15,879 nucleotides of DNA, from IMG/VR virus record IMGVR_UViG_2872158770_000005; one strand, given 5' to 3'. Numbering within the stretch: the stretch's first letter is position 1; each line of letters starts with the position of its first letter. This DNA is from a virus. Taxonomy: Duplodnaviria > Heunggongvirae > Uroviricota > Caudoviricetes. The notes beneath the pieces were generated by a model. It was not told where the DNA came from and searched no databases. It worked only from the letters and a program-made list of their open reading frames with translations. The translations under genes and the position numbers were made by a program. Positions 1 to 13,052 of the stretch are shown here, piece by piece.

Positions 1-504
1 TTATTGATAGTGTTTTATGTTCAGATAATGCCCGATGACTTTGTCATGCAGCTCCACCGATTTTGAGAACGACAGCGACTTCCGTCCCAGCCGTGCCAGG
101 TGCTGCCTCAGATTCAGGTTATGCCGCTCAATTCGCTGCGTATATCGCTTGCTGATTACGTGCAGCTTTCCCTTCAGGCGGGATTCATACAGCGGCCAGC
201 CATCCGTCATCCATATCACCACGTCAAAGGGTGACAGCAGGCTCATAAGACGCCCCAGCGTCGCCATAGTGCGTTCACCGAATACGTGCGCAACAACCGT
301 CTTCCGGAGACTGTCATACGCGTAAAACAGCCAGCGCTGGCGCGATTTAGCCCCGACATAGCCCCACTGTTCGTCCATTTCCGCGCAGACGATGACGTCA
401 CTGCCCGGCTGTATGCGCGAGGTTACCGACTGCGGCCTGAGTTTTTTAAGTGACGTAAAATCGTGTTGAGGCCAACGCCCATAATGCGTGCTGTTGCCCG
501 GCAT
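1..504 (-). CDS. insB: IS1 transposase InsB reading frame (InsAB' made by -1 frameshift)
   Basis: 167-aa ORF recognised as IS1 InsB; A6C slippery run (rc of 441-449) in the insA/insB overlap; residue 5 is Ser here versus Cys in copies B and C. Confidence 0.9.
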
Positions 505-698
505 CCAACGCCATTCATGGCCATATCAATGATTTTCTGGTGCGTACCGGGTTGAGAAGCGGTGTAAGTGAACTGCAGTTGCCATGTTTTACGGCAGTGA
601 GAGCAGAGATAGCGCTGATGTCCGGCAGTGCTTTTGCCGTTACGCACCACCCCGTCAGTAGCTGAACAGGAGGGACAGCTGATAGAAACAGAAGCCAC
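423..698 (-). CDS. insA: IS1 InsA (transposition inhibitor, N-terminal part of transposase)
   Basis: 91-aa ORF with Cys-rich zinc-finger N-terminus (CPSCSATDG...CSHCRK) characteristic of IS1 InsA. Confidence 0.9.
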
Positions 699-905
699 TG
701 GAGCACCTCAAAAACACCATCATACACTAAATCAGTAAGTTGGCAGCATCACCCCGCCACAGAACAATTATTGCTTTTGCCGTTGATGACAATAAAGTTT
801 TTATCGCAGGCGTATACCACGGTGGGCAAATCTATGAAACCGATTTTTTATCCAGTGCACCGTAAAACCCCCATCCTTCAGGGCGTGGCGGATATCAAAC
901 TTTGG

Positions 906-1988
906 TCATTTTCTCTGGCTGATCTTTACCGGATAACCATCCCGAAGATCAATTAAGTGCTCCGGTTCAGAAGCAAACCATGCATAAGATCCCCACGCCA
1001 ATTCTGGTATTGCCTTTTTAAAAGGCAGAGCACTTCTGTCCATAAATGCCGTAAGGAATGCAAGATTTTTCTCGCTGAACCCAGCGTCAATAGCCAAATG
1101 AGTGAGAGTAACTTTTCGTTCCCTGTTTATAGGCCCATCTGTCGCAACTACTTCAGTGAAAACTACAAGCATGTCCGAACCCGTTCGGTCCTCTCCCAAA
1201 TCAATCAAAATAATATCTGGAAGTGCTTTTGAGGCATCAATATTCAGCCCCAATGCTTTTGCCAATACATCATCCTGAGCAACAACTTTATTCCCGGATT
1301 CAGACAACCAGAGCACAGTTGGATTCTTAAGAAAATTAGGAGCAAAAACTTCGATGACGGCCTTAGCTATTGTACTTGACGGGCCCGGAGCTAAAGTTCT
1401 CTTCTCTCCATTTGGGAAAGTGACGACTACGGCATCAGCAGCAATCACTGCCCCTGATTTCAATAAACGCAACCTAGCAAGAGCGGCTTTGTTCAAATGA
1501 TTTTCTTGCCAGGAACTTATTGCACTCAGCAGCGAATCTCCTTCAAGCCCGGCATCAAAGAGTGCTGCAAAAGAGCGATTCAAACTGTAACGAGGACGAG
1601 AGGATGTGGTGGGTATACCTTTACGCTCAACAATTGCATTGCAAGGTATTAGGCCATTTTTTATAGTTTCATCACGTATTGGCTCACGCGTATTTTCCGC
1701 ATACCATGCATCAGCAGGCCTTATCTTTTGTTTAGAGAAAGTCATCTTTACCCAGCTTTCTCTGGACGCATCATCAGTAAGAGCAGCCTGCGAATCTCCC
1801 ATACTTACAACCTGGCTGGGCCTTATCCATCGCCCCAGCCCCTCAACCGCACCAGCATAAAACATGACAAAAATTGTTTTTGCAGCTATTTCCCGAATTA
1901 AATATCCACGATTCTCAGTCCCTTCAGGGAAAATTAATTGTAATCTTTCCCGGATAACATTCAATGGGGGAACAACAGGCAGATTCAT
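906..1988 (-). CDS. Putative Type II restriction endonuclease (cognate partner of the adjacent methyltransferase; family not assignable from sequence alone)
   Basis: 360-aa ORF directly downstream of the methyltransferase with a 4-nt ATGA stop/start overlap (1985-1988) and a GGAG SD; size and position typical of an R gene. No catalytic motif could be assigned by eye. Confidence 0.5.
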   Translation of the reverse strand: MNLPVVPPLNVIRERLQLIFPEGTENRGYLIREIAAKTIFVMFYAGAVEGLGRWIRPSQVVSMGDSQAALTDDASRESWVKMTFSKQKIRPADAWYAENTREPIRDETIKNGLIPCNAIVERKGIPTTSSRPRYSLNRSFAALFDAGLEGDSLLSAISSWQENHLNKAALARLRLLKSGAVIAADAVVVTFPNGEKRTLAPGPSSTIAKAVIEVFAPNFLKNPTVLWLSESGNKVVAQDDVLAKALGLNIDASKALPDIILIDLGEDRTGSDMLVVFTEVVATDGPINRERKVTLTHLAIDAGFSEKNLAFLTAFMDRSALPFKKAIPELAWGSYAWFASEPEHLIDLRDGYPVKISQRK

Positions 1989-3817
1989 GCAATCATCACT
2001 CCATAGAAACCAGCGATAGTTCTCTCAATAATCCGTCTGTGGACGCCAGCATCAATTAACGATTGAATCTCCATCACCTGCTCCAGAGAAGGCAACGGGA
2101 TTGAATTCAATTCATAGGCCGAAACAGCAACACTTCCGCTTATACACCTGAACGCCCGATCGACAACATGCGAATTAAGTAGCATATCAATAACATCAGG
2201 GCGAACCGCAGAGAACAATCCGTTTGAATATACAATATTAATATGGTTTTCAACTACTACGCCACCAGTTTCATCTATAAATCCCTGAGGTAAAATTGCC
2301 GCTAAAATCCTTCTGTCCTGTTCCTTCGATGTTGTCCGCTGAACAAGCACACATTCAGATTTTGTCACAAGGAAACCCTGTTGTGGGGTTATATCGATAT
2401 AGGGAACATGATTTTTTCTGTCTGCACTAAAACGAAAACCAGCTGAAGTTATTGATTCCGCCCAGACTAATGGGTAGCTATTTTTTCCTTTCGTCGTACG
2501 CAACTGCGACTTAAATCGATTCCAGACTAACTGACCTGTAGAGACTGAGTATCCCAGATCAGCTAAACGCGTAGACATCTGTTTTAATACATTAAGAAAA
2601 CAGGCATCATCTTTAACGCGTGGCAAAAGCCACGTTGCTCCACCTTTTTCTATATCAACATTACCTATTTTCTCAATTTTTGCTTTGTTCAACCCCTTAG
2701 GGACAAGTGAGGATACCTGGGCCCGAACTTTATGTTCTCCCGCCTTGAATGCTGTCAACATTGTTTCCTGGAGAACATCGTCAAAGACCCCATCCCTGTC
2801 AGTGACGAAATCAAGGGCATACGGAGTAGTTTTTTCGGTCAAAAGGGTTCGCAGCGCGGTGAAATACTGCCCACCAAGAAAAGAAGTTGGCGTAAGAAAT
2901 GCAATAACTCCTGTTTTCTCTTTAACCATGCGAACAGCTAAGTCGGTGAACAATCCATATAGATTTGCATGACCAAATAACGAACGAGAATATTTTTCTC
3001 TCGTTTTAATATCGAGAGTGACACGTCCGTAAGGCGGATTCCCTACCACAAGATCATAACCAGAAAATTTATCTTGCTGAAGCGCATCAGCAACAATAAT
3101 TGTATCTTCAGGCAATCTACGTTTTACCTTTACACATAGTGGCATTAGTACAGATTCGAGCAATACCAAACTCATCCAAGCCGCAAATGGATCGATTTCT
3201 ATCCCCTTTAAACGACGACTGATTCTCCTCAACATCCATTCAGGGGAAGACCCCTTGTCTTTTTTTAACATTCGAATGGCTACTGGTGCCAAAAATGCAC
3301 CGCCACCACACGCAGGATCAATAACCGATGCATGAGAAAAATCAACACCAGACTTTTCAGCCAGGTCCAAGAGACGCGCTACCAAAGGTGGGGGGGTATA
3401 GTAAGCCCCCAATTCCGAACGGTAAGCGGATGGCAGCATTACCGTATAAATTGACCCAATCAGATATCCAGCGTCCTCCGCCGGAAATTGAGCAATAAGC
3501 TCACCTGTTCGTTCAGCGAGCTCGCGTGCATCACATGGAATGTCTTCTATGTAAACAGTGTGCGGTACTGCCCTCATTTTAATGCTGCTTTTTTGCTTTT
3601 TTGCAAGGGTATCCCAATATGCAGCTACGATGCTGAAGCAGTATGAGCGGGCATGCATCAACCTTGACTGCCCGGTTTTGTAATTGCCCGCATAACCTTT
3701 GGCCATGGCTTTACAAGTTTGATATCTTTCCAGATTAGAAAACTCATTATCTGTAAAAAAATCAAAATGTTGCACATTCATAATGTAAAATCCTAATGTA
3801 TCAAACATGCGGGCCAT
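1985..3817 (-). CDS. N6-adenine DNA methyltransferase, gamma class (Type II modification methylase)
   Basis: Motif order X-I-IV: GAYYTPP, then DPACGGGAFL (AdoMet binding), then NPPYG (catalytic); about 340 aa follow motif IV, consistent with a target-recognition domain. Alternative start at 3784 (MNVQHF...) has a better AGGA SD. Confidence 0.85.
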   Translation of the reverse strand: MARMFDTLGFYIMNVQHFDFFTDNEFSNLERYQTCKAMAKGYAGNYKTGQSRLMHARSYCFSIVAAYWDTLAKKQKSSIKMRAVPHTVYIEDIPCDARELAERTGELIAQFPAEDAGYLIGSIYTVMLPSAYRSELGAYYTPPPLVARLLDLAEKSGVDFSHASVIDPACGGGAFLAPVAIRMLKKDKGSSPEWMLRRISRRLKGIEIDPFAAWMSLVLLESVLMPLCVKVKRRLPEDTIIVADALQQDKFSGYDLVVGNPPYGRVTLDIKTREKYSRSLFGHANLYGLFTDLAVRMVKEKTGVIAFLTPTSFLGGQYFTALRTLLTEKTTPYALDFVTDRDGVFDDVLQETMLTAFKAGEHKVRAQVSSLVPKGLNKAKIEKIGNVDIEKGGATWLLPRVKDDACFLNVLKQMSTRLADLGYSVSTGQLVWNRFKSQLRTTKGKNSYPLVWAESITSAGFRFSADRKNHVPYIDITPQQGFLVTKSECVLVQRTTSKEQDRRILAAILPQGFIDETGGVVVENHINIVYSNGLFSAVRPDVIDMLLNSHVVDRAFRCISGSVAVSAYELNSIPLPSLEQVMEIQSLIDAGVHRRIIERTIAGFYGVMIA

Positions 3818-12297: not shown

Positions 12298-12794
12298 TAG
12301 TGTTTTATGTTCAGATAATGCCCGATGACTTTGTCATGCAGCTCCACCGATTTTGAGAACGACAGCGACTTCCGTCCCAGCCGTGCCAGGTGCTGCCTCA
12401 GATTCAGGTTATGCCGCTCAATTCGCTGCGTATATCGCTTGCTGATTACGTGCAGCTTTCCCTTCAGGCGGGATTCATACAGCGGCCAGCCATCCGTCAT
12501 CCATATCACCACGTCAAAGGGTGACAGCAGGCTCATAAGACGCCCCAGCGTCGCCATAGTGCGTTCACCGAATACGTGCGCAACAACCGTCTTCCGGAGA
12601 CTGTCATACGCGTAAAACAGCGAGCGCTGGCGCGATTTAGCCCCGACATAGCCCCACTGTTCGTCCATTTCCGCGCAGACGATGACGTCACTGCCCGGCT
12701 GTATGCGCGAGGTTACCGACTGCGGCCTGAGTTTTTTAAGTGACGTAAAATCGTGTTGAGGCCAACGCCCATAATGCGTGCAGTTGCCCGGCAT
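12291..12794 (-). CDS. insB: IS1 InsB reading frame (W57S variant)
   Basis: 167 aa; RQRSLFY here versus RQRWLFY in copies A and B. Confidence 0.9.
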
Positions 12795-12988
12795 CCAACG
12801 CCATTCATGGCCATATCAATGATTTTCTGGTGCGTACCGGGTTGAGAAGCGGTGTAAGTGAACTGCAGTTGCCATGTTTTACGGCAGTGAGAGCAGAGAT
12901 AGCGCTGATGTCCGGCAGTGCTTTTGCCGTTACGCACCACCCCGTCAGTAGCTGAACAGGAGGGACAGCTGATAGAAACAGAAGCCAC
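12713..12988 (-). CDS. insA: IS1 InsA
   Basis: 91 aa, identical to the other copies. Confidence 0.9.
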
Positions 12989-13043
12989 TGGAGCACCTCA
13001 AAAACACCATCATACACTAAATCAGTAAGTTGGCAGCATCACC

Positions 13044-13052
13044 TTTCCGGTT
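13044..13052. repeat. Target-site duplication TTTCCGGTT (right copy) of IS1 copy C
   Basis: See left copy. Confidence 0.9.

Follow-up and report, generated by a model that had tools for sequence, protein, structure and literature searches.

How did three copies of one insertion sequence, IS1, come to lie in the same direction within a stretch of prophage DNA, and is the DNA between them being lost? The stretch, referred to here as the window, is the 15,879-nucleotide (nt) virus record IMGVR_UViG_2872158770_000005. It was found to be 99.967% identical to Shigella sonnei 53G (HE616528.1), a lineage II strain according to the literature, over 12,261 nt, and none of the complete Escherichia coli genomes held more than 44% of it. 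Other assemblies, designated by L-numbers below, were called S. sonnei-type by their near-identity to 53G. The gene calls and the Pfam matches identified the genes of the window as the early region of a lambdoid prophage. The explanation in which, taken as a whole, we place high confidence is that the window is a stretch of an S. sonnei-type chromosome with a lambdoid prophage remnant at the Qin (ydfJ) position. Insertion sequences are eroding this remnant: the IS1 copies, which are both long direct repeats and active transposon ends, seed further deletions.

The repeat scan and a base-by-base comparison revealed one repeat family, present as three direct copies in register, as the original prediction had stated; no inverted repeats were detected in the repeat scan of the window. 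The repeats were 753-768 base pairs (bp) long and at least 99.7% identical, which is far beyond chance. In each of them insA is followed by insB' on the minus strand, hence their direct orientation:

1-753, minus strand: IS1 copy A, with the insB' frame at 1-504, insA at 423-698, the A6C motif at 441-447 and the left inverted repeat (IRL) at 731-753
10263-11030, minus strand: IS1 copy B, with the right inverted repeat (IRR) at 10263-10285, the insB' frame at 10278-10781, A6C at 10718-10724, insA at 10700-10975 and IRL at 11008-11030
12276-13043, minus strand: IS1 copy C, with the insB' frame at 12291-12794, A6C at 12731-12737 and insA at 12713-12988

Copies B and C measured exactly 768 bp, and copy A was short by the first 15 nt because the window starts inside the element; the related genomes hold a full copy A. 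The terminal inverted repeats (IRL GGTGATGCTGCCAACTTACTGAT, IRR GGTAATGACTCCAACTTATTGAT) matched at 18 of 23 positions. InsA has 91 amino acids, the insB' frame comprises 167 codons in the -1 phase, and the A6C slippery site (AAAAAAC) occupies IS1 nt 307-313. The modelled -1 fusion, InsAB', has 232 amino acids, a length equal to that of the genes called in related genomes. Full-length Pfam matches were obtained for Zn_ribbon_InsA (76 bits), HTH_Tnp_IS1 (107 bits) and DDE_Tnp_IS1 (260 bits); the last (PF03400) was covered from 1 to 131 of 131, and InsA matched PF03811 and PF12759. Plasmid elements annotated as IS1A family were about 99.4% identical. Judged by their sequence, the three elements are standard IS1 of the IS1A type, and copies A and B encode the consensus InsAB'. 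It has been described that InsAB' arises by -1 frameshifting at A6C, that insB' alone is untranslated and that the transposase acts in trans (PMC12903888).

In the case of copies B and C, the immediate flanks and the related genomes show how they arrived. Each copy is bounded by a perfect direct duplication of its own:

10254-10262 (left) and 11031-11039 (right): 9-bp target duplication of copy B, CAACCGTTT
12267-12275 (left) and 13044-13052 (right): 9-bp target duplication of copy C, TTTCCGGTT

In the genomes L020 and L021 neither site was occupied: each 9-mer was present once, and the segment between the sites was intact; these genomes contained an intact 284-amino-acid Rha/Ash gene and the same exonuclease gene truncated by IS600. 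Since the duplications differ and both sites are empty in L020 and L021, copies B and C must each have entered resident DNA on its own, by simple insertion. The earlier claim that they have different 9-bp duplications, are independent and did not move as a unit was thus confirmed by the flanks and by the empty sites. Each is the product of an ordinary transposition that made its own 9-bp target duplication. As to the order of events, we infer that B and C were inserted after the IS600 event, since L020 and L021 share the IS600 truncation and have neither IS1. Copy B lies in non-coding DNA, 132 bp downstream of an open reading frame (ORF) of 121/125 amino acids. Copy C lies in the 3' end of the Rha/Ash-family gene, from which it removed the last 29 codons, and 107 bp upstream of dicB. 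The two target sites resemble each other (TTTCAACCGTTTTATC at 10254-10266/11031-11043 and TTTCCGGTTTTATC at 12267-12279/13044-13056, with GTTTTATC in common), which is why the BLAST alignments overran the ends of the elements by 5-13 nt; this likeness could be due to target preference or to chance.

Two kinds of deletion starting from these copies were observed in related genomes. In four assemblies (the complete chromosomes L003 and L014 and the drafts L015 and L016) the left flank of B, one IS1 and the right flank of C followed each other, and 11031-12275 together with one IS1, 2013 bp in all, was missing. Homologous recombination between B and C would remove precisely this interval and one IS1. 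In L002, L004, L007 and L010 the left flank of B was followed by one IS1 and then by a ynfF-like gene from about codon 449, and the ynfF side of this junction was collinear with and 100% identical to 53G over about 957 nt. Along with copy C and IS600, this deletion of 7,212 bp takes in rha, dicB, the exonuclease fragment, what is left of ynfE and ynfF in its 5' half. It would be one-sided, extending 7.2 kb from IS1 B, and the gene that it enters, ynfF, codes for a respiratory enzyme. The candidate mechanisms for the two deletions are RecA-type recombination and intramolecular transposition. The third conceivable loss, of 754-10262 between A and B, was found in none of 18 S. sonnei-type loci, some of which do not span both A and B. 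The original prediction had named both 11031-12275 and 754-10262 as prone to deletion and had staked itself on the existence of junction variants. Its coordinates were correct and such variants exist, as B×C and as B-to-ynfF forms; the loss was seen for the B-C interval, and for 754-10262 it was not seen in the 18 loci. Three further assemblies from the exonuclease look-up (L017-L019), in which IS1 C is joined to unrelated DNA, were left uncounted, since N gaps inside IS1 mark them as scaffolding artefacts.

Copy A is of a different nature. In the related genomes, which supply the sequence to the left of the window, it is flanked by TGTTATATG and CCGCCACAG; the duplication that was to be looked for beside it is not there, and a simple insertion was rejected on this ground. 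Its left flank is the chromosomal ydfJ-ydfI intergenic region, ending 48 bp upstream of ydfI; at the equivalent point BL21 has a ydfJ remnant and then Qin. On the right, the flanking DNA sets in at nt 201 of a parE-family gene that measures 312 nt in a related intact prophage of E. coli FDAARGOS_943. Since no duplication is present and the DNA changes across copy A from the ydfJ-ydfI intergenic region to the interior of a parE-like gene, copy A marks a deletion junction. The deletion was associated with IS1, took out the late region of the prophage along with the ydfJ remnant and left copy A as its scar; it would have arisen through either intramolecular transposition or recombination between two IS1 copies. 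Beyond parE, the FDAARGOS_943 prophage carries parD, DUF968, rusA, Q, lysis, terminase, head and tail genes over about 33 kb. This prophage was rejected as a model of the left junction, as it sits at potB and not at ydfJ, and it serves to show an intact late region only. A fourth IS1 in the same orientation was noticed about 8.2 kb to the left of the window (91-858 of L003/L005, in window orientation), where it separates a glycosyl hydrolase family 1 gene from the mgtT/dgcZ side. As the sequences that border it, TTCCGCCTG and TGAACGGAG, form no duplication, it is probably another rearrangement junction.

The three copies are not identical, and only two positions vary over the 753 that they share:

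492, minus strand: variable site 1 (IS1 nt 262); copy A has T, whereas copies B (10769) and C (12782) have A
12622, minus strand: variable site 2 (IS1 nt 422); copy C has G, whereas copies A (332) and B (10609) have C

Three differences had been listed before; two of these, a Ser or Cys at InsB residue 5 and a T/A difference near 489, both go back to nucleotide 492. At this site insA codon 69 reads ACA or ACT, both coding for Thr, and the insB' frame has Ser5 or Cys. As the site lies upstream of the A6C frameshift, where the insB' part is untranslated, and is synonymous in insA, it is silent in both InsA and InsAB', and the supposed protein difference does not exist. Where the insB' frame precedes the frameshift site, amino acid "differences" are therefore not to be counted as protein variation. 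Site 2 changes TGG to TCG in copy C only, and the Trp to Ser substitution reported earlier is real, the codon being insB' codon 58 rather than 57 (W123S in the 232-residue InsAB'). In an alignment of the 14 usable distant IS1-family proteins (36-67% identity; many of the 150 matches listed were fragments), Trp123 was kept in 11. This conservation suggests that the transposase of copy C is probably weakened or inactive, and the copy non-autonomous. With its ends intact, copy C should stay usable in trans and as a substrate for recombination. At nt 262, T was carried by copy A in the window and in L002, L004 and L010, by an upstream IS1 in L008 and L009, and by copy B in 53G; the nt-422 allele was shared by the copies C of the window and L013 and absent from copy C of 53G. 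The original prediction had ascribed the differences to different source copies or to divergence. Since the orthologous copies in sister strains lack these alleles or carry them elsewhere, different source copies are unsupported, and later change agrees with the data. The two differences are recent and local, and change after insertion, gene conversion or a polishing error would all fit.

The interval between copies A and B holds the prophage early region, including two modules that may bear on its retention:

754-10262: segment A to B, the prophage early region
906-1988, minus strand: gene of a BsuBI/PstI-type restriction enzyme
1985-3817, minus strand: gene of an N6-adenine methyltransferase, overlapping the restriction enzyme gene
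8837-9321, plus strand: PaaA2-ParE toxin-antitoxin pair

The same segment also encodes DUF977, DUF1627, a DnaC/IstB-like ATPase, a replisome organiser, YdaT, cro-like and cI-like regulators, DUF1391 and the ORF of 121/125 amino acids. In L004, L014 and L015 the methyltransferase gene was called in two pieces and the restriction gene was intact; the split calls could be a sequencing error, or else the nuclease could be inactive.

To the right of copy B the genes are a Rha/Ash-family gene, dicB, a DUF1482 gene and a truncated ydfE-like exonuclease gene. The features of this part are the following:

11031-12275, plus strand: segment B to C, with an isrK-like RNA, a C4-like antisense RNA and the truncated Rha/Ash gene
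11559-11635, plus strand: isrK-like RNA, above the Rfam gathering score (61.2 bits)
11661-11748, plus strand: C4 antisense RNA, above the Rfam gathering score (76.7 bits)
from the ATG at 11806, plus strand: Rha domain ORF of the Rha/Ash-family regulator gene (Pfam), its 3' end cut by copy C
13151-13339, plus strand: dicB, intact, a cell-division inhibitor gene (Pfam, 124 bits), 107 bp downstream of IS1 C
13621-14682: ydfE-like exonuclease gene, truncated at 14682 by IS600
14680-15879, minus strand: IS600 of 1264 bp, running 64 bp past the window to its right end at L012:12323

The position of isrK and C4 just upstream of the Rha/Ash gene resembles the immunity/antirepressor modules of the P1 c4/ant or the Gifsy isrK-anrP kind, and this module is exactly the segment bracketed by B and C that is gone from the B×C recombinants. 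Between 11508 and 11806 a 1-nt indel relative to 53G and L020 puts the ATG at 11508 out of frame with the Rha domain ORF, and the gene was called with 262 amino acids in 53G and 284 in L020. The N-terminal extension may be non-coding, because the region overlaps the isrK and C4 RNAs. Transcription of dicB from the prophage promoter is probably blocked by the two IS1 copies, whose orientation is opposite to that of the early-left operon.

At the right end, IS600 adjoins a 306-amino-acid ynfE remnant in 53G, and therefore the int end of the prophage and the chromosomal genes up to ynfE are missing. Judging from the K-12 gene order, we presume that the missing interval includes speG. Complete loss of the speG locus has been reported for S. 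sonnei (PMC3213128), which fits an IS600 junction joining the exonuclease fragment to the ynfE remnant. In L014 different DNA, with a BenE-family gene, was seen beyond the same IS600, that is, another rearrangement.

Several points tell against the interpretation given above or parts of it. L015 and L016 are drafts, in which repeat collapse could mimic the B×C deletion, and L003 and L014 are the stronger evidence. The large B-to-ynfF deletion is suggested to be the majority state and the arrangement of the window the minority one, because the exonuclease fragment was indexed far less often than the restriction enzyme (152 and 4192 indexed blocks of the collection, which are a rough indicator and not genome counts). 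The junctions of copy A and of the B-to-ynfF deletion look identical whether they arose by intramolecular transposition or by recombination with a second IS1 that was lost. Two of the 14 homologues lack Trp123, both being seemingly degenerate, and a third is out of frame or unreadable at this place; conservation is the sole ground for a loss of function by W123S. Finally, the point differences could be polishing artefacts, the repeat being present in hundreds of copies. Carried through, this last objection makes both of them consensus errors drawn from reads of other IS1 copies. The occurrence of the nt-262 T allele at different loci in nearly identical strains agrees with it, and so do the several assemblies with IS1 lengths of 767 or 769 bp, 1-nt differences typical of sequencing error. 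However, gene conversion among hundreds of copies predicts the same patchy pattern, and the nt-422 allele recurs at the same locus in the independent assembly L013, which favours a real inherited variant. We regard a non-biological origin as a serious but rather unlikely possibility. The patchy distribution of the nt-262 allele among orthologous copies may in turn reflect ongoing gene conversion within the IS1 pool. A separate proposal is that the A-B interval may be kept despite its flanking IS1 copies because its addiction modules, the restriction-modification system and PaaA2-ParE, would kill the cells that lose it; the B-C and B-ynfF intervals carry no addiction module and are lost repeatedly. 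Both proposals are speculative, and we give them little credence.

The remaining alternatives concern the arrival of copies B and C and the order of events. The layout is like that of Tn9 (IS1-cat-IS1, with direct IS1 repeats), in that two direct IS1 copies flank a 1245-bp passenger with isrK, C4 and the truncated rha, 2781 bp in total, and one could imagine a composite transposon inserted as one unit. But the outer flanks, CAACCGTTT to the left and TTTCCGGTT to the right, differ, and each belongs to the duplication of one IS1; moreover, L020 and L021 have the passenger at this position without either IS1, and their rha gene is intact. Nor did any plasmid among the best 5000 records hold at least 80% of 10263-13043 in one place, chromosomes beyond the related loci being outside this survey. 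Thus the two flanking IS1 copies expected of a composite are present, and neither a shared outer target duplication nor, among these plasmids, the unit in an unrelated context was found. Unit transposition in the manner of Tn9 was rejected on account of the flanks, the empty sites and the absence from the plasmids surveyed, and it must be considered extremely improbable. The reverse order of events, in which the single-IS1 forms (B×C and B-ynfF) are ancestral and the two-copy arrangement of the window is derived, could appeal to the B-ynfF form being seemingly the commonest. Against it, the full segment is present in genomes with neither IS1. The single-IS1 forms lack DNA that is found both in the empty-site genomes and in the window, and to re-create lost DNA is implausible; moreover, the sequences at their flanks come from two different duplications, one half of each. 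This order can hardly be given any credit. Separate insertion of B and C followed by deletion thus remains our reading. With it a single locus displays, across related genomes, all the stages: the empty sites, the two insertions, the one-IS1 recombinant, the ynfF deletion and, at copy A, an older scar.

In comparison with known systems, the elements themselves correspond to IS1 of the IS1A/IS1R type from E. coli K-12 and plasmid R100 (the "IS1-like element IS1A family" of PGAP). They share with it the length of 768 bp, imperfect inverted repeats of about 23 bp, the insA/insB' pair, the A6C -1 frameshift leading to InsAB' and the 9-bp target duplications. The window copies differ from this type by a few base substitutions, copy C has W123S, and copy A is without a duplication. 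The insB' frame of K-12, which we take to start with MPGNSPHY, starts with MPGNC/STHY in the window copies. As in Tn9, a passenger of about 1.1-1.25 kb lies between two IS1 copies in direct orientation, and recombination between the Tn9 copies leaves a single IS1, as in L003 and L014; in contrast to Tn9, B and C of the window were inserted separately and share no outer duplication. The Qin cryptic prophage of E. coli K-12 and BL21 occupies the same position beside ydfI, and a dicB-ydfD-ydfE-type early-left operon is found in both. However, the remnant in the window carries different cargo (the BsuBI/PstI-type restriction-modification genes, PaaA2-ParE and the isrK/C4/rha module) and is without both ends, through the IS1- and IS600-associated deletions.

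The closest parallel to the deletions is that of the classical gal-region deletions, which end at IS1. IS1 has expanded in S. sonnei, about 45 copies having been gained on the branch that leads to lineages II and III (Hawkey et al. 2020, PMC7373316), and in this species insertion sequence sites vary from strain to strain and deletions occur between the copies (PMC7373316). The phenomenon is therefore ordinary, well known and already described as IS1 expansion and IS-linked deletion in Shigella, and the locus opens no new question. Its value is practical, for annotation and genotyping: the junctions are lineage markers, and short-read assemblies break at the IS1 repeats. In IS1-promoted adjacent deletions and in the IS-mediated genome reduction of Shigella, the deletion likewise starts exactly at the end of IS1, the element stays intact and no duplication is present, as at copy A and at the B-ynfF junction. 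There is no difference in principle, and the locus represents one more example of these processes.

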